DNA of 64,000 nt from Escherichia coli (GTDB lineage Bacteria; Pseudomonadota; Gammaproteobacteria; Enterobacterales; Enterobacteriaceae): NCBI RefSeq assembly GCF_003018255.1, contig NZ_CP027440.1; one strand, 5' to 3'. A program made the translations under genes and the position numbers. The notes below the pieces were generated by a model. It was given only the letters and a program-made list of their open reading frames with translations. It ran no database searches and was not told where the DNA came from. Shown here piece by piece: positions 2,139 through 33,688 of the stretch (the stretch's first letter is position 1; each line of letters opens with the position of its first letter).

Positions 2139-3104
2139 TCATTCGCCTGCGCGGGGTTGCGATACCACCGTTGTATGCTTACGTAATCCGCCCCAAATAC
2201 GATGACCAATGGCGGAATACATCGCGCCCGCAACCACGACAAACGCACCGAGATAACCTAAAAGGTTTAACATCGGTCTGGCGAAGAAATCGGGCCAGGC
2301 CAGTGATAAAAGATCTGAAAAAAACAGCGTAAACAGTGGGGTGAGCGTAATGATCGCGCTCACCTGCGCTGCCTGCCAGCGAGCCATCGCTTCCGCCAGG
2401 GCGCCATATCCTACCAATGTATTCAGTCCGCAAAAAATTAAACATGCGAGCTGCCAGTGGCTAAGCTGCGCTATCACTCCAGGCTTTGCCAGAGGGAAGA
2501 GCGCAATTGTACATAAAGTGTACAGCAAAAACAGGATCTGCGGTGAGGCCAGTCGACGCAATAAAACCTTTTGCGCCACGCCATAACTCACCCACACCGT
2601 CGCCGCACCGACCCCAAAGATTACTCCCCAGGTGTAATCGGTGAGCTTTGTAAATATCTCGACCAGACTGGTGTTAAAAAACATCACCAGGCCGCTCAGG
2701 AGCATCAATGCCCCTACAACCTGAGTGCTGCGCATTTTCTCTTTCAGGATAAATACGCTGGCAACCATCATGCCAACTGGCGAGAGTTGCCCAATCACCT
2801 GCGAAGCGGTCGGACTCAGGTATTGCAAGGATGAGCTGAACAGGATGAAGTTCCCAAACAGCCCGGCGGTCGCCACTGCCAACAAAATCAACCAGCGTGG
2901 CTTACGAAACACGCGTAATGGCGGCAACCGCTTCTTCACCGCAAGAATGGCACCCAGGCCAATACTCGCCATCAAGAAACGGTAAAACACGATTGTCGGA
3001 GGTTCCATCACCTCCAGCACCTGCTTCATTGCGATTGGCAACGCCCCCCAGCAAATTGCTGTGGTGAGCGCCAAAAGAATGCCAATGCCTGCCTGCTGCT
3101 TCAT
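2139..3104 (-). CDS. yhbE: EamA-family inner membrane transporter YhbE
   Basis: 321 aa hydrophobic multi-pass protein directly downstream of rpmA and upstream of obgE, matching the E. coli arrangement. Confidence 0.85.
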   Translation of the reverse strand: MKQQAGIGILLALTTAICWGALPIAMKQVLEVMEPPTIVFYRFLMASIGLGAILAVKKRLPPLRVFRKPRWLILLAVATAGLFGNFILFSSSLQYLSPTASQVIGQLSPVGMMVASVFILKEKMRSTQVVGALMLLSGLVMFFNTSLVEIFTKLTDYTWGVIFGVGAATVWVSYGVAQKVLLRRLASPQILFLLYTLCTIALFPLAKPGVIAQLSHWQLACLIFCGLNTLVGYGALAEAMARWQAAQVSAIITLTPLFTLFFSDLLSLAWPDFFARPMLNLLGYLGAFVVVAGAMYSAIGHRIWGGLRKHTTVVSQPRAGE

Positions 3105-3175
3105 ACCGTATTCCCTGCAAAGCGCATTTGCGGATTAACGTCGCACCATGCGCATTTTTACCGGTTATCGAATGT

Positions 3176-3204
3176 AAAAAGCCCCGCAACGTGTTGCGGG
3201 GCTT
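3176..3204 (-). terminator. Intrinsic terminator downstream of rplU-rpmA
   Basis: Hairpin AAAGCCCCGCAAC-GTGTTGCGGGGCTTT followed on the minus strand by TTTTTACATT. Confidence 0.75.
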
Positions 3205-3230
3205 TCATCCGTTACCGGGACGCGAAAAAC

Positions 3231-3856
<626 letters not shown>

Positions 3857-10435: not shown

Positions 10436-10644
10436 AATTCACCCTTCGTCTTGCGTTGATTTTCTAAGCATGGCGCTCAATTTAACCTTGACCCCAACAT
10501 ATTTACAGAATATTACCCGCCGTGGTTAGCGAAAGCTGGCATTTGTTTTACTTTTTAGCCGCATAAAGTCAAAATTAAGAATCCGTTACGGCTTTCTGAA
10601 AATCTTCAGCGGACCGGCGAGTATACCTGAAGAAAGGACGTTAG

Positions 10645-24420: not shown

Positions 24421-25094
24421 AATCTGATAGACCGCGCCTTGAAAAGAGGCCAAAGCCTGCCATTTTTAGCCCAATTCGGCGATGACCTGGATCAATCGTC
24501 CCGGCCTGCTTTTATCAACTGCATAATCAATCAAAATTACCGAAATTTCATGCACAATCACATAAATCACTTTTGCTTATCTTGTGTCAGATTTTTTTAT
24601 CTCCTTATGGATTTTAGGCAAAAACAGTAGCATGAAACGTTATTACCAATTAAGGCAGTATAAAATGCTGGTTTTCTCGTCAGTTCAAGGCAGGATAAGG
24701 GTTAACACGCCTTTATGACAGTCAGGAATTGGCTGTTTCTCTAACGACGCCCCTTTTAGCCTTAAATAGAAAATCCACTTTAATTTCAGCCAATTAATAA
24801 AGAATTTTGCGCTAAAGCACATTTCTGTACCAATAAGCTTGCCATTTGACCTGTATCAGCTTTCCCGATAAGTTGGAAATCCGCTGGAAGCTTTCTGGAT
24901 GAGCAGCCTGCTCATCATATTTATGCAGTAATTGAGATCCCCTCTTCACCGTATTAACCGATGCGAAAAGGACAACAAGGGGGCGAATGCGAGGCGCGCG
25001 TATGACACGCAAACCCCGTCGCCACGCTCTTTCTGTGCCCGTGCGCAGCGGTTCGGAAGTGGGGTTCCCGCAGAGCCTGGGGGAGGTTCACGAT

Positions 25095-28000
25095 ATGTTG
25101 TACGATAAATCCCTTGAGAGGGATAACTGTGGTTTCGGCCTGATCGCCCACATAGAAGGCGAACCTAGCCACAAGGTAGTGCGTACTGCAATACACGCAC
25201 TGGCCCGCATGCAGCACCGTGGCGCGATTCTCGCCGATGGTAAAACCGGTGACGGTTGCGGCTTGCTGTTACAAAAACCGGATCGCTTTTTTCGCATCGT
25301 TGCGCAGGAGCGCGGCTGGCGTTTAGCAAAAAACTACGCCGTCGGGATGCTCTTCCTGAATAAAGATCCTGAACTCGCCGCTGCCGCACGCCGCATCGTT
25401 GAAGAAGAGCTGCAACGCGAAACGTTGTCGATTGTGGGCTGGCGTGATGTCCCCACTAACGAAGGCGTGCTGGGTGAAATCGCCCTCTCCTCTCTGCCAC
25501 GCATTGAGCAAATTTTTGTGAACGCCCCGGCAGGCTGGCGTCCGCGCGATATGGAGCGCCGTCTGTTTATCGCCCGCCGCCGCATTGAAAAGCGTCTCGA
25601 AGCCGACAAAGACTTCTACGTCTGTAGCCTGTCGAATCTGGTCAATATTTATAAAGGTCTGTGTATGCCGGCGGATCTGCCGCGCTTCTACCTGGACCTC
25701 GCGGACCTGCGTCTGGAATCGGCTATCTGCCTGTTTCACCAGCGCTTTTCCACTAACACCGTACCGCGCTGGCCGCTGGCGCAGCCGTTCCGCTACCTCG
25801 CGCATAACGGTGAAATCAACACCATCACCGGTAACCGCCAATGGGCGCGTGCGCGTACCTATAAATTCCAGACGCCGCTGATCCCTGACCTGCACGACGC
25901 CGCGCCGTTCGTCAACGAAACCGGCTCTGACTCCAGTTCGATGGATAACATGCTGGAACTCCTGCTGGCAGGCGGGATGGATATCATCCGTGCCATGCGT
26001 CTGTTAGTGCCACCAGCCTGGCAGAACAACCCGGATATGGACCCGGAACTGCGTGCCTTCTTTGACTTTAACTCCATGCATATGGAGCCGTGGGATGGTC
26101 CGGCAGGGATCGTGATGTCCGATGGCCGTTTCGCCGCCTGTAACCTCGACCGTAACGGTCTGCGTCCGGCACGCTACGTCATCACCAAAGATAAACTGAT
26201 CACCTGCGCCTCTGAAGTCGGTATCTGGGATTATCAGCCTGACGAAGTGGTCGAAAAAGGCCGCGTAGGGCCAGGCGAACTGATGGTGATCGACACTCGC
26301 AGTGGGCGCATTCTACACTCGGCAGAAACCGATGATGACCTGAAAAGCCGCCATCCCTATAAAGAGTGGATGGAGAAAAACGTCCGCCGTCTGGTACCGT
26401 TTGAAGATCTGCCCGATGAAGAAGTGGGTAGCCGCGAACTGGACGACGACACGCTTGCCAGCTACCAGAAACAATTTAACTACAGCGCGGAAGAGCTGGA
26501 TTCGGTGATCCGCGTACTGGGTGAAAACGGTCAGGAAGCGGTCGGTTCGATGGGCGACGATACCCCATTCGCCGTGCTCTCCAGCCAGCCGCGCATTATT
26601 TACGACTACTTCCGCCAGCAGTTTGCTCAGGTAACCAACCCGCCAATCGACCCGCTGCGCGAAGCGCATGTTATGTCGCTCGCCACCAGTATCGGTCGTG
26701 AAATGAACGTCTTCTGTGAAGCAGAAGGCCAGGCGCACCGTTTAAGCTTTAAATCGCCGATTCTGCTCTATTCCGATTTCAAACAGCTCACGACGATGAA
26801 AGAGGATCACTACCGCGCAGATACGCTGGATATCACCTTTGACGTCACTAAAACCACGCTCGAAGCGACGGTGAAAGAGCTGTGCGACAAAGCCGAAAAA
26901 ATGGTACGTAGTGGCACCGTGCTGCTGGTGCTCTCCGACCGGAATATCGCTAAAGATCGCCTGCCGGTTCCGGCTCCGATGGCGGTTGGCGCGATCCAGA
27001 CCCGTCTTGTCGAGCAAAGCCTGCGTTGCGATGCCAACATCATCGTAGAAACCGCCAGCGCCCGTGATCCGCACCACTTCGCCGTGTTGCTGGGTTTCGG
27101 CGCGACGGCTATTTATCCATACCTTGCCTATGAAACGCTGGGCCGCCTGGTAGACACCCACGCGATTGCCAAAGATTATCGTACCGTGATGCTCAACTAT
27201 CGTAACGGCATCAACAAAGGCTTGTACAAAATCATGTCCAAAATGGGCATCTCCACCATCGCCTCTTACCGCTGCTCGAAACTGTTTGAAGCGGTCGGTC
27301 TGCACGATGATGTCGTGGGCCTGTGCTTCCAGGGGGCGGTTAGCCGCATTGGGGGGGCTAGCTTTGAAGACTTCCAGCAGGATCTGCTGAATCTGTCGAA
27401 ACGAGCCTGGCTGGCGCGTAAGCCTATCAGCCAGGGCGGCCTGCTGAAATACGTGCACGGTGGCGAATACCACGCCTACAATCCGGACGTGGTGCGCACG
27501 CTGCAACAGGCGGTACAGAGCGGCGAGTATAGCGACTATCAGGAATACGCGAAGCTGGTTAATGAGCGTCCGGCAACCACGCTACGCGATCTGCTGGCAA
27601 TTACGCCGGGTGAAAACGCGGTCAACATTGCTGATGTTGAACCGGCAAGCGAACTGTTTAAACGCTTCGATACCGCCGCGATGTCTATCGGCGCGTTAAG
27701 CCCGGAAGCCCACGAGGCGCTGGCGGAAGCGATGAACAGCATCGGCGGTAACTCAAACTCCGGCGAAGGCGGTGAAGACCCGGCGCGCTATGGCACTAAC
27801 AAAGTGTCGCGCATCAAGCAGGTGGCGTCCGGTCGCTTCGGCGTTACTCCGGCGTACCTGGTCAATGCCGACGTCATTCAGATAAAAGTCGCCCAGGGCG
27901 CGAAGCCGGGTGAAGGTGGTCAGTTACCGGGTGATAAAGTCACTCCTTACATTGCCAAACTGCGCTATTCGGTGCCGGGCGTGACGCTGATCTCCCCGCC

Positions 28001-29555
28001 GCCGCACCACGATATCTACTCTATTGAGGATTTAGCGCAGCTGATTTTCGACCTCAAGCAGGTTAACCCGAAAGCGATGATCTCCGTGAAGCTGGTTTCC
28101 GAACCGGGCGTAGGCACCATCGCGACTGGCGTGGCAAAAGCTTATGCCGATTTAATCACCATCGCAGGCTATGACGGCGGCACCGGCGCAAGTCCGCTTT
28201 CATCGGTGAAATACGCAGGCTGTCCGTGGGAGCTGGGGCTTGTTGAAACCCAACAGGCGCTGGTTGCCAACGGCTTGCGTCACAAGATCCGTTTGCAGGT
28301 CGATGGCGGCCTGAAAACGGGTGTCGATATCATCAAAGCAGCGATTCTTGGCGCGGAAAGTTTTGGCTTCGGCACTGGCCCGATGGTAGCGCTTGGCTGT
28401 AAATATCTGCGAATTTGCCACCTGAACAACTGCGCCACGGGTGTAGCAACTCAGGATGACAAACTGCGTAAGAATCACTATCACGGCCTGCCGTTCAAAG
28501 TGACTAATTACTTTGAGTTTATCGCCCGTGAAACCCGCGAGCTGATGGCACAGCTGGGGGTAACGCGTCTGGTGGATCTGATTGGTCGCACCGACCTGCT
28601 GAAAGAGCTGGACGGTTTCACCGCCAAACAGCAGAAACTGGCACTGTCGAAGCTGCTGGAGACTGCTGAGCCGCATGCTGGTAAAGCGCTCTACTGCACC
28701 GAAAACAACCCGCCGTTTGATAACGGCCTGCTGAACGCGCAGTTGCTGCAACAGGCAAAACCGTTTGTCGATGAACGCCAGAGCAAAACCTTCTGGTTCG
28801 ATATCCGCAACACCGACCGTTCTGTCGGCGCATCGCTTTCAGGCTATATCGCCCAGACGCACGGCGATCAGGGGCTGGCTGCCGATCCTATCAAAGCGTA
28901 CTTCAACGGCACCGCAGGCCAGAGCTTCGGCGTGTGGAACGCGGGCGGCGTGGAACTGTACCTGACCGGTGATGCCAACGACTATGTCGGTAAAGGCATG
29001 GCGGGCGGCTTAATCGCCATTCGTCCTCCGGTTGGCTCAGCCTTCCGCAGCCATGAAGCGAGCATTATCGGCAACACCTGCCTGTATGGCGCGACCGGTG
29101 GTCGTCTGTATGCCGCAGGCCGCGCGGGTGAACGTTTCGGCGTGCGTAACTCCGGTGCTATCACCGTGGTAGAAGGCATTGGCGACAACGGCTGTGAATA
29201 TATGACGGGTGGTATCGTCTGTATTCTGGGTAAAACCGGCGTTAACTTCGGCGCAGGCATGACTGGCGGCTTCGCTTACGTTCTCGATGAAAGCGGCGAT
29301 TTCCGCAAACGCGTTAACCCGGAACTGGTCGAGGTCTTAAGCGTTGACGATCTGGCGATCCATGAAGAGCATCTGCGCGGTCTTATCACCGAGCATGTTC
29401 AGCATACCGGTTCTCAGCGCGGTGAAGAGATTCTGGCGAACTGGTCAACCTTCGCCACTAAATTTGCGCTGGTTAAACCGAAGTCCAGTGATGTAAAAGC
29501 ACTGCTGGGTCACCGTAGTCGTAGCGCAGCAGAGTTGCGCGTGCAGGCGCAGTAA
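25095..29555 (+). CDS. gltB: Glutamate synthase (NADPH) large subunit
   Basis: Start taken at MLYDKSLERDNCGFGLIAHIEGEP (ATG at 25095; N-terminal Cys-containing amidotransferase domain), about 1486 aa; the ORF track extends 36 codons further upstream (24987). Confidence 0.95.
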   Translation: MLYDKSLERDNCGFGLIAHIEGEPSHKVVRTAIHALARMQHRGAILADGKTGDGCGLLLQKPDRFFRIVAQERGWRLAKNYAVGMLFLNKDPELAAAARRIVEEELQRETLSIVGWRDVPTNEGVLGEIALSSLPRIEQIFVNAPAGWRPRDMERRLFIARRRIEKRLEADKDFYVCSLSNLVNIYKGLCMPADLPRFYLDLADLRLESAICLFHQRFSTNTVPRWPLAQPFRYLAHNGEINTITGNRQWARARTYKFQTPLIPDLHDAAPFVNETGSDSSSMDNMLELLLAGGMDIIRAMRLLVPPAWQNNPDMDPELRAFFDFNSMHMEPWDGPAGIVMSDGRFAACNLDRNGLRPARYVITKDKLITCASEVGIWDYQPDEVVEKGRVGPGELMVIDTRSGRILHSAETDDDLKSRHPYKEWMEKNVRRLVPFEDLPDEEVGSRELDDDTLASYQKQFNYSAEELDSVIRVLGENGQEAVGSMGDDTPFAVLSSQPRIIYDYFRQQFAQVTNPPIDPLREAHVMSLATSIGREMNVFCEAEGQAHRLSFKSPILLYSDFKQLTTMKEDHYRADTLDITFDVTKTTLEATVKELCDKAEKMVRSGTVLLVLSDRNIAKDRLPVPAPMAVGAIQTRLVEQSLRCDANIIVETASARDPHHFAVLLGFGATAIYPYLAYETLGRLVDTHAIAKDYRTVMLNYRNGINKGLYKIMSKMGISTIASYRCSKLFEAVGLHDDVVGLCFQGAVSRIGGASFEDFQQDLLNLSKRAWLARKPISQGGLLKYVHGGEYHAYNPDVVRTLQQAVQSGEYSDYQEYAKLVNERPATTLRDLLAITPGENAVNIADVEPASELFKRFDTAAMSIGALSPEAHEALAEAMNSIGGNSNSGEGGEDPARYGTNKVSRIKQVASGRFGVTPAYLVNADVIQIKVAQGAKPGEGGQLPGDKVTPYIAKLRYSVPGVTLISPPPHHDIYSIEDLAQLIFDLKQVNPKAMISVKLVSEPGVGTIATGVAKAYADLITIAGYDGGTGASPLSSVKYAGCPWELGLVETQQALVANGLRHKIRLQVDGGLKTGVDIIKAAILGAESFGFGTGPMVALGCKYLRICHLNNCATGVATQDDKLRKNHYHGLPFKVTNYFEFIARETRELMAQLGVTRLVDLIGRTDLLKELDGFTAKQQKLALSKLLETAEPHAGKALYCTENNPPFDNGLLNAQLLQQAKPFVDERQSKTFWFDIRNTDRSVGASLSGYIAQTHGDQGLAADPIKAYFNGTAGQSFGVWNAGGVELYLTGDANDYVGKGMAGGLIAIRPPVGSAFRSHEASIIGNTCLYGATGGRLYAAGRAGERFGVRNSGAITVVEGIGDNGCEYMTGGIVCILGKTGVNFGAGMTGGFAYVLDESGDFRKRVNPELVEVLSVDDLAIHEEHLRGLITEHVQHTGSQRGEEILANWSTFATKFALVKPKSSDVKALLGHRSRSAAELRVQAQ

Positions 29556-30986
<1,431 letters not shown>

Positions 30987-31168
30987 GCCTGTCCCAGCGC
31001 CGCCTCCTCAGAAAAGAGTCGGCGCTGAAATTCTCCTTTCTTTCTGGAAAGCGCCTCGCATAATCTGAAGAAAACCAATGTAATACGCTCATCTGGATTG
31101 TTACCGGTAGATGCCCGGCGTATAGCTGATTCCATTATTCAACGCAGCGCCATATAAAGGGACAGATA

Positions 31169-32296
31169 ATGGAATCGCTCTCAGAGAGAACCTCAACAGG
31201 CTACCAGCAAATCCACGACGGTATTATTCACCTGGTCGATAGCGCCCGGACGGAAACGGTACGTAGCGTTAACGCGCTGATGACCGCGACATACTGGGAA
31301 ATTGGCCGACGAATTGTCGAATTTGAACAAGGTGGCGAGGCCAGGGCTGCGTATGGTGCGCAGCTAATCAAGCGACTATCAAAGGATTTAAGTCTAAGGT
31401 ATAAGCGTGGGTTCTCTGCAAAAAACTTACGCCAAATGAGGCTTTTTTACCTCTTTTTTCAACATGTTGAAATTCGCCAGACAGTGTCTGGCGAATTAAC
31501 ACCATTGGGAATTCCGCAGACACCATCTGCAGAATTCCCATCGGCAAAGATTTGGCAGACGCTGTCTGCCAAATCTTTCCCCCTGCCCTGGTCCACCTAC
31601 GTCCGTTTACTTTCCGTTAAAAACCCTGATGCCCGCAGCTTTTATGAAAAAGAGACGCTCCGCTGTGGTTGGTCTGTCCGCCAGCTAGAGCGGCAAATTA
31701 CGACCCAATTTTATGAGCGAACACTACTGTCACATGACAAATCAGCCATGCTGCAACAACACGCTCCTGCCGAGATGCATATTCTTCCGCAACAGGCGAT
31801 ACGCGATCCCTTTGTGCTCGAATTTCTGGAGTTGAAAGATGAATACTCAGAATCTGATTTTGAGGAGGCGCTGATCAACCACCTGATGGATTTCATGCTG
31901 GAACTTGGGGATGATTTTGCCTTTGTTGGTCGGCAGCGAAGGTTACGCATTGATGACAACTGGTTTCGGGTCGATCTGCTGTTTTTCCACCGCCGTTTAC
32001 GCTGCCTGCTAATCGTCGATCTAAAAGTGGGCAAATTCAGCTATAGCGATGCCGGACAGATGAATATGTATCTCAACTACGCCAAAGAGCACTGGACACT
32101 ACCGGATGAAAATCCGCCCATCGGTCTGGTTCTCTGTGCAGAGAAAGGAGCCGGCGAAGCGCATTATGCACTGGCTGGTTTGCCTAACACCGTTCTGGCG
32201 AGTGAATATAAGATGCAACTACCTGATGAAAAACGACTCGCGGATGAACTCGTTCGAACACAGGCGGTGTTAGAGGAAGGCTATAGACGCCGTTAA
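31169..32296 (+). CDS. yhcG: DUF1016 (YhcG-like) protein with predicted C-terminal PD-(D/E)XK nuclease fold
   Basis: 375 aa, MESLSERTSTGYQQIHDGIIHLVDSARTE...; sits directly after gltD with only a 182-bp spacer. Confidence 0.85.
   Translation: MESLSERTSTGYQQIHDGIIHLVDSARTETVRSVNALMTATYWEIGRRIVEFEQGGEARAAYGAQLIKRLSKDLSLRYKRGFSAKNLRQMRLFYLFFQHVEIRQTVSGELTPLGIPQTPSAEFPSAKIWQTLSAKSFPLPWSTYVRLLSVKNPDARSFYEKETLRCGWSVRQLERQITTQFYERTLLSHDKSAMLQQHAPAEMHILPQQAIRDPFVLEFLELKDEYSESDFEEALINHLMDFMLELGDDFAFVGRQRRLRIDDNWFRVDLLFFHRRLRCLLIVDLKVGKFSYSDAGQMNMYLNYAKEHWTLPDENPPIGLVLCAEKGAGEAHYALAGLPNTVLASEYKMQLPDEKRLADELVRTQAVLEEGYRRR
31471..31578. repeat. Three consecutive palindromes with CAGACA/TGTCTG cores inside the yhcG coding sequence
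   Basis: 31471-31497 AATTCGCCAGACA-G-TGTCTGGCGAATT (13-bp arms, perfect); 31509-31539 GGAATTCCGCAGAC-ACC-ATCTGCAGAATTCC (imperfect); 31546-31578 AAAGATTTGGCAGAC-GCT-GTCTGCCAAATCTTT (15-bp arms, perfect). Read directly from the sequence. Confidence 0.85.
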
Positions 32297-32311: not shown

Positions 32312-32336
32312 ATTCTCCAGACACTGTCTGGAGAAT
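32312..32336. repeat. Fourth copy of the same palindrome family, 16 bp after the yhcG stop, between convergent yhcG and yhcH
   Basis: ATTCTCCAGACA-C-TGTCTGGAGAAT, a perfect 12-bp-arm palindrome closely similar to the copy at 31471-31497; no flanking T-run, so not a classical intrinsic terminator. Confidence 0.85.

Positions 32337-32355: not shown

Positions 32356-33688
<1,333 letters not shown>

Follow-up and report, generated by a model that had tools for sequence, protein, structure and literature searches.

The gltD–nanQ interval of the Escherichia coli sequence analysed here (contig NZ_CP027440.1; the whole stretch of 64 kb is hereafter called the window) very probably has the ancestral layout of a variable locus, which is also the most frequent one; the K-12 layout is a diverged haplotype of that locus. 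In the window, gltD is followed directly by yhcG. The junction is the commonest state in the species and is not a strain-specific deletion.

In our interpretation, the interval is a small variable stretch bounded by two convergent core genes, gltD and nanQ. In the form found in the window, gltD is followed by a stable 3' hairpin, and a short spacer with a putative promoter leads to yhcG, an accessory gene of a nuclease family, with nothing deleted. In the K-12 haplotype, which about a fifth of E. coli (phylogroup A, according to published work) and E. marmotae carry, a low-GC β-class chaperone-usher operon, gltF-yhcADEF, lies between gltD and yhcG; homologous recombination in the conserved flanks is the most likely means by which this haplotype passed from one lineage to another. 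A third form, that of B2-type strains, would have arisen with the loss of yhcG as well.

Gene Order at the gltD–yhcG Junction

The features of the locus are listed in Table 1. The coordinates of the ORF listing and the sequence itself agree on the direct succession of gltD and yhcG, with 182 bp between them, as was stated in the first-pass annotation of this DNA. The gltD gene ends in a TAA stop codon (30984–30986), and its product shares 99% amino acid identity with GltD of K-12. Beyond nanQ, the window continues with nanK and nanE.

Table 1. Features of the gltD–nanQ interval and its surroundings, in window coordinates.
Feature	Position	Strand	Evidence
gltB	24987–29555	+	ORF listing
gltD, glutamate synthase small subunit	29568–30986	+	ORF; NCBIfam TIGR01318, E 2.7e-270
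gltD–yhcG spacer, 'B-type' junction	30987–31168, exactly 182 bp	+	sequence
52-bp segment without K-12 counterpart, holds the hairpin	30989–31040	+	BLAST vs K-12
GC-rich hairpin, CAGCGCCG(C)CTC...GAG(T)CGGCGCTG	30995–31027	+	inverted repeat I7
yhcG upstream region, common with K-12 in diverged form	31041–31168	+	alignment
yhcG, intact, 375 aa	31169–32296	+	ORF
Palindrome P1 in yhcG	31471–31497	+	
Palindrome P2 in yhcG	31507–31539	+	
Palindrome P3 in yhcG	31543–31581	+	
Palindrome ATTCTCCAGACACTGTCTGGAGAAT between convergent yhcG and nanQ	32312–32336	.	inverted repeat I6
nanQ (yhcH), conserved right flank of the variable interval	32356–32820	-	NCBIfam NF040884, E 1.7e-68

A tblastn search with the K-12 proteins GltF, YhcA, YhcD, YhcE and YhcF returned no match over the whole 64-kb window, in agreement with the earlier observation that no ORF resembling gltF or a chaperone/usher pair occurs at the junction. 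Genes for an usher (PapC_N/Usher/PapC_C), a PapD-like chaperone and a DUF1120 subunit are likewise absent between gltD and yhcG in the window.

Counted from its ATG at 24987, the longest ORF of gltB encodes 1,522 aa, compared with 1,486 aa in the RefSeq annotation and 1,517 aa according to other gene callers. These length differences reflect start-codon ambiguity only.

Comparison with the K-12 Arrangement

The gene order of K-12 given in the first-pass annotation is correct: the MG1655 annotation reads gltD-gltF-yhcA-yhcD-yhcE(IS5)-yhcF-yhcG, followed by nanQ. In the reference strain, gltD does not adjoin yhcG; gltF-yhcADEF lies between the two genes, which are 7.2 kb apart with the IS5 element in yhcE included. 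As found by BLAST, homology between the window and K-12 stops at position 30988, 2 nt past the gltD stop codon, and restarts at 31041, which is 129 bp before the yhcG start of K-12 and 128 bp before that of the window (1-bp indel). In place of the 52 bp that the window has between these points, K-12 has 7,079 bp (gltF-yhcADEF plus IS5). The difference between the two is, therefore, a replacement of 52 bp versus 7,079 bp and no clean indel. The K-12 annotation, the BLAST breakpoints and the empty tblastn search together establish that the strain lacks the K-12 gltF-yhcADEF segment.

Matches to the 52-mer are confined to B-type loci, those of E. albertii among them. Scars or direct repeats, which had been proposed as something to look for at the junction, were not found in the window: its spacer contains no direct repeats, no IS elements or IS ends and no leftover K-12-type sequence. 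The K-12 block has an atypical base composition, with a GC content of 38–49% versus 55–59% in gltD and nanK-nanE. It has no integrase, tRNA target or flanking direct repeats, and its annotation comprises fimbrial genes, IS5 and yhcG only; its borders bear related palindromes, not direct repeats.

Sequence divergence between the window and K-12 extends to the flanks. The nanQ-nanK region (32440–33640) and the 3' end of gltD are 90–96% identical to K-12, and the neighbouring segments 98–100%, a pattern that suggests a mosaic, recombined history of the flanks too. A recent foreign import of yhcG, which is 93% identical between the window and K-12, was considered and rejected because the gltD 3' end and nanQ-nanK are equally at 90–96%; only the 129-bp yhcG upstream region (77% identical between the window and K-12) is diagnostic. 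An apparent resemblance, noticed by eye, of the K-12 sequence after gltD to a Pseudocitrobacter metagenome-assembled genome is supported by BLAST for the palindrome only and is otherwise conjectural.

States of the Interval across E. coli

The frequency of each state was determined in 5,426 complete E. coli genomes. A direct gltD–yhcG junction of the window type is present in 3,139–3,140 of them (58%), BL21(DE3) included, and gltF-yhcA is carried by 1,123 (21%). In another 948 genomes (17%), for example IHE3034 and ATCC 11775, yhcG is also missing and gltD abuts nanQ over a 67-bp spacer. Short K-12-type spacer remnants alone were detected in about 170 further genomes. By these counts the E. 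coli interval exists in three or more major states, and the expectation that the gltD/yhcG junction varies between strains is thus borne out. Among the minor states are K-12-type strains in which IS1 is accompanied by adjacent deletions of variable extent, a yhcG interrupted by both an IS and a group II intron, a truncated yhcG, and a frameshifted yhcG in an O157-like strain.

The fimbrial copies of E. coli are highly uniform: with gltF-yhcA as the query, 1,293 records matched, 1,288 of them at 99% identity or more. Such uniformity suggests that the operon spread through the species once and recently.

In strains SX12, MRE162 and 2018-11-1BCC, IS1 lies at one point, 3 bp upstream of the core of the third yhcG palindrome (P3), whereas the deletions to its left differ, and the K-12-type spacer left after gltD measures 304 bp, 166 bp and about 100 bp, respectively. 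It looks as if IS1 had inserted once and the fimbrial operon had then been lost through separate deletions next to it.

The Junction in Other Species and the Direction of Change

The spacer of the window can be aligned outside E. coli. The type strain of E. albertii has the 52-bp segment and the yhcG upstream region in common with the window, at 94–96% identity; what remains of yhcG behind them is a 5' remnant. Over the full 182 bp, the spacer is 94% identical to that of the same strain and 70% identical to that of Pseudocitrobacter faecalis, against a maximum of 43% in shuffled sequences. Homologues of YhcG with 76–82% amino acid identity are encoded directly after gltD in Salmonella enterica, Citrobacter koseri and P. 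faecalis, and in the latter two yhcG is followed by nanQKETAR, as in the window. Salmonella, C. koseri and P. faecalis were recovered through their YhcG homologues; the matches listed by a GTDB scan with GltD are patchy, with one genome per species and neither E. fergusonii nor Salmonella among them. Given the 52-bp segment and upstream region common to E. albertii and P. faecalis, and the gene adjacency in Salmonella and C. koseri, we infer by parsimony over this handful of genera that the gltD-hairpin-yhcG layout predates Escherichia and is ancestral.

The region upstream of yhcG occurs in two forms. The copies of the window, the O157-like strain, ECOD1, SCPM-O-B-8794 and E. albertii are 94–100% alike, that of the window being 96% identical to E. 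albertii. The second form is found in K-12 and E. marmotae, which are 82% alike, and identity between the two forms is 70–77%.

Fimbrial operons are also found next to gltD in other species. E. marmotae carries gltF-yhcADEF at the same position (usher 67% identical at the amino acid level), followed by a decayed yhcG, and some E. albertii have a fimbrial operon in the gltD-nan interval (usher 82% identical) without yhcG. Among the matches listed, a yhc-like β-class chaperone-usher operon adjoins gltD in inverted orientation in Citrobacter and Enterobacter, with 41–59% identity (31–59% amino acid identity across the genes of the operon). The fimbrial operon of K. oxytoca is at a different locus. 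The 3' flank of gltD seems to be a recurrent home of fimbrial operons. In Phytobacter and Citrobacter sp. FP75, again among the matches listed, the chaperone-usher clusters that lie downstream of gltD are unrelated ones.

Judged by these sequence comparisons, the K-12 arrangement is a distinct, deeply diverged trans-specific haplotype and no recent invention of K-12. The fimbrial operon is an old low-GC accessory module, sporadic yet recurring at the gltD–nanQ interval, and the fimbria-bearing and fimbria-free haplotypes are both older than the species boundary of E. coli.

The yhcG gene is decayed in the E. albertii type strain (positions 2927–3503 of record L011) and in E. marmotae (13857–14300 of L095). 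In the former, the deletion joins an internal P3-like left arm to the right arm of the terminal palindrome; the latter has an internal deletion of roughly 700 bp, as estimated by eye, that begins at the palindrome.

Alternative Origins of the Junction

The first-pass annotation had offered two readings, that the strain lost the fimbrial segment or that K-12 gained it. The orthology of the junction and the gene adjacency across genera fit a gain by the K-12 haplotype better than a loss in the strain. Descent of the window lineage from a K-12-like ancestor, with deletion of gltF-yhcADEF, is quite unlikely. The operon does occupy the same interval in three Escherichia species, and is inverted next to gltD in Citrobacter and Enterobacter, so it is ancient there, and genuine deletions of the operon exist in the K-12-type lineage, namely the IS1-flanked ones of SX12, MRE162 and 2018-11-1BCC. 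However, the window retains no K-12-type sequence after gltD and has neither an IS nor a repeat scar. Orthology with E. albertii and P. faecalis accounts for its 182-bp spacer over the full length, its yhcG upstream region is far closer to that of E. albertii than to that of K-12 (96% versus 77%), and the gltD–yhcG adjacency is found in four genera. Because the operon is old at the locus too, as indicated by E. albertii, E. marmotae and the inverted copies of Citrobacter and Enterobacter, the yhcG-only form could nevertheless be a deep loss. That the direct junction is an artefact of assembly or sequence collapse has a negligible probability: nothing was found in its favour, 3,139 complete genomes share the junction, and two of them, obtained independently, match the surrounding 24 kb at 100% identity, which refutes this reading.

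It is also conceivable, but rather improbable, that the gltD–nanQ interval is an insertion hotspot that the operon and yhcG each entered repeatedly and independently, in which case their shared position would reflect target preference, and palindromes of the type CAGAC-N3-GTCTG could have served as the recombination substrate. Consistent with such a hotspot, the operon adjoins gltD in both orientations and has a copy at another locus in K. oxytoca, and the clusters of Phytobacter and Citrobacter sp. FP75 downstream of gltD are unrelated. The usher identities (82% for E. albertii, 67% for E. marmotae) are out of step with the generally accepted relatedness of the Escherichia species, and palindromes mark the outer edges of the K-12 block as well as the endpoints of deletions. 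By contrast, the block has no flanking integrase, tRNA gene or direct repeats, and the action of any mechanism on the palindromes is speculative. The spacer and the yhcG upstream region can be aligned across genera, which favours descent over reinsertion of yhcG. An ancestral gltD–yhcG junction, with the K-12 layout as a diverged haplotype, is the preferred reading.

The Hairpin after gltD

A hairpin had been proposed in the spacer at positions 30996–31028. The hairpin is real, but its computed position (Table 1) differs by one base. Its arms (30995–31006 and 31016–31027) start 9 nt past the gltD stop codon, and it folds at -19.2 to -21.1 kcal/mol, with z-scores of -2.6 to -3.3 versus shuffled sequences. 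Of the T-rich tract that was said to follow, a pyrimidine-rich tail (AAAUUCUCCUUUCUUUCU) is present, but there is no T/U run 3' of the stem, where the sequence reads AAAUUCUCCUUUC / GAAATTCTCCTTTCTTTCT; a terminator scan that asks for 5 or more T among 8 nt, no further than 2 nt from the stem, did not call it. As had been suggested, the hairpin is a plausible candidate for the 3' end of the gltBD transcript, since a stable hairpin is found at this position in every lineage examined; a role as terminator is more tentative, as the U-tract is lacking.

P. faecalis has the same hairpin with a longer stem. At the corresponding position, a GC hairpin of another kind is found in Salmonella, C. koseri, K-12, B2 strains and fimbria-bearing E. 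albertii. Eight contexts were folded (the window, P. faecalis, Salmonella, C. koseri, K-12, a B2 strain, a fimbria-bearing E. albertii and the yhcG–nanQ spacer), in which the upstream gene is gltD in seven cases and yhcG in one. All eight contain stable hairpins (-18 to -33 kcal/mol) at 9–18 nt past the upstream stop codon, the stems belong to at least four unrelated sequence types, and none of the eight is followed by a U-run. Because a hairpin is kept despite the replacement of the sequence, a function at the 3' terminus of the gltBD transcript is supported, and on these grounds the element is fairly likely to be a terminator or a 3'-end protecting hairpin of this transcript. In the second case, it could protect the 3' end behind a Rho-dependent stop. 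A search for known RNA families between 30800 and 32500 (Rfam, E ≤ 1) yielded only a chance miRNA match, with 21 bits versus a gathering score of 100.

yhcG and its Upstream Region

The region upstream of yhcG contains sigma-70-like boxes, TTGTTA (31098–31103) and TATAGC (31121–31126), separated by a 17-nt spacer, and a ribosome-binding site precedes the ATG at 31169. The boxes are kept in both haplotypes and across genera, with variable sequence between them. TTGTTA-17-TATAGC is thus a putative promoter of yhcG; the boxes were not called by a consensus promoter scan. In K-12, a divergent ncRNA, G0-10703, was reported to overlap the 5' region of yhcG (PMC7967276).

The YhcG protein of the window is 97% identical to that of K-12. 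A database protein that is 99% identical to it (P0067) contains a DUF1016_N domain (PF17761) and a YhcG_C PD-(D/E)XK domain (PF06250). YhcG also matches the PADLOC model PDC-S02 over residues 8–370 (E 3e-136); no NCBIfam model matched it. From this domain content, YhcG is predicted to be a nuclease-family protein of the DUF1016_N plus YhcG_C PD-(D/E)XK type and is a candidate for phage defence.

Locus-Specific Palindromes

The yhcG gene contains three tandem 39-bp units (31471–31581, plus strand) that are near-perfect palindromes with the core CAGAC-N3-GTCTG. They encode three 13-aa repeats, EIRQTVSGELTPL / GIPQTPSAEFPSA / KIWQTLSAKSFPL, and the copy number of the unit is 1–3 among E. coli alleles and related genera. 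Tandem Repeats Finder reported nothing for this array because the units are too divergent outside the palindrome core. A reverse-strand tblastn self-match in yhcG stems from the palindromy.

The palindrome between yhcG and nanQ folds at -18 kcal/mol and belongs to the same family as the one located after gltD in K-12 and B2 strains. Its window and K-12 versions differ by a compensated pair (TCC/GGA versus TGC/GCA). In K-12, palindromes are located at both outer borders of the gltF...yhcG block (2132–2157 and 10470–10495 of record L001), and in B2 strains a single palindrome remains between gltD and nanQ (12515–12541 of L003). Exact matches to the core number three in the 64 kb, all at this locus, with 0.04 expected by chance. 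E. coli genomes have a median of 2 places per genome, equivalent to one palindromic site read on both strands. A dispersed REP-like repeat was ruled out, as the copies in E. coli genomes are limited to this locus.

The arm positions beside the core covary, with 91% of the cells paired and three positions changed on both sides. This covariation score was reached by none of 500 shuffles, in a test that is partly circular because the set was chosen for palindromy. Several rearrangements coincide with the units: an 80-bp deletion in the O157-like strain and the loss of one 39-bp unit in SCPM-O-B-8794 are bounded by them, and the yhcG truncation of OkiPb01701 falls within the right arm of P3. Slippage or template switching promoted by hairpins, both ordinary processes, would suffice to explain such palindrome-linked endpoints. 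That the palindromes (AATTC-NN-CAGAC-N3-GTCTG-NN-GAAT) are more than terminator-like hairpins, acting as a recombination substrate that makes the gltD–nanQ variants or as a cis element tied to the YhcG nuclease, is doubtful, and either role is speculative.

Relation to Published Work and Known Systems

The patchy distribution of yhc and gltF has already been published, so the arrangement in the window is correctly described, ordinary and known in substance. Wurpel et al. (2013) placed Yhc among the sporadic, under-represented fimbriae without deciding between a remnant and a gain (PMC3559732). Del Canto et al. (2017) found the β-class yhc locus in phylogroup A only, and the IS5 in K-12 only (PMC5216030). 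Kim et al. (2018) described BL21(DE3) as being without gltF beside gltBD (PMC6150544). What is added here is the tracing of the junction across genera, a small refinement, and a specialist would find nothing surprising in the result. It makes a modest contribution to the question of remnant versus gain, as both gltD–nanQ haplotypes cross species boundaries, and the fimbria-free gltD–yhcG junction is common to Salmonella, Citrobacter koseri and Pseudocitrobacter. For annotation, the 'gltBDF operon' and 'yhcADEF' are features of K-12 that are not expected in most E. coli; their absence in the window is, therefore, no lesion.

Compared with known systems, the window wholly lacks the β-class Yhc fimbrial locus of K-12 (gltF-yhcA-yhcD-yhcE-yhcF). 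The gene that adjoins gltD in the window is an intact member of the YhcG/DUF1016 nuclease family with both domains. This family comprises uncharacterised predicted nucleases that are often found beside restriction-modification systems (PMC1189080, PMC9881135); unlike these, the yhcG of the window stands alone, with no partner defence genes beside it.

The palindromes resemble REP/BIME elements in being short, imperfect, hairpin-forming sequences near the 3' ends of genes with which IS insertions and deletions are associated, but they are not dispersed, and three copies lie inside a coding sequence. To our knowledge, their sequence is unrelated to the REP consensus. The hairpin after gltD differs from an intrinsic terminator in that its stem is not followed by a U run and the consensus scan is negative, but it shares with such terminators a GC-rich stem-loop placed 9 nt past the last stop codon of the operon and kept across genera.
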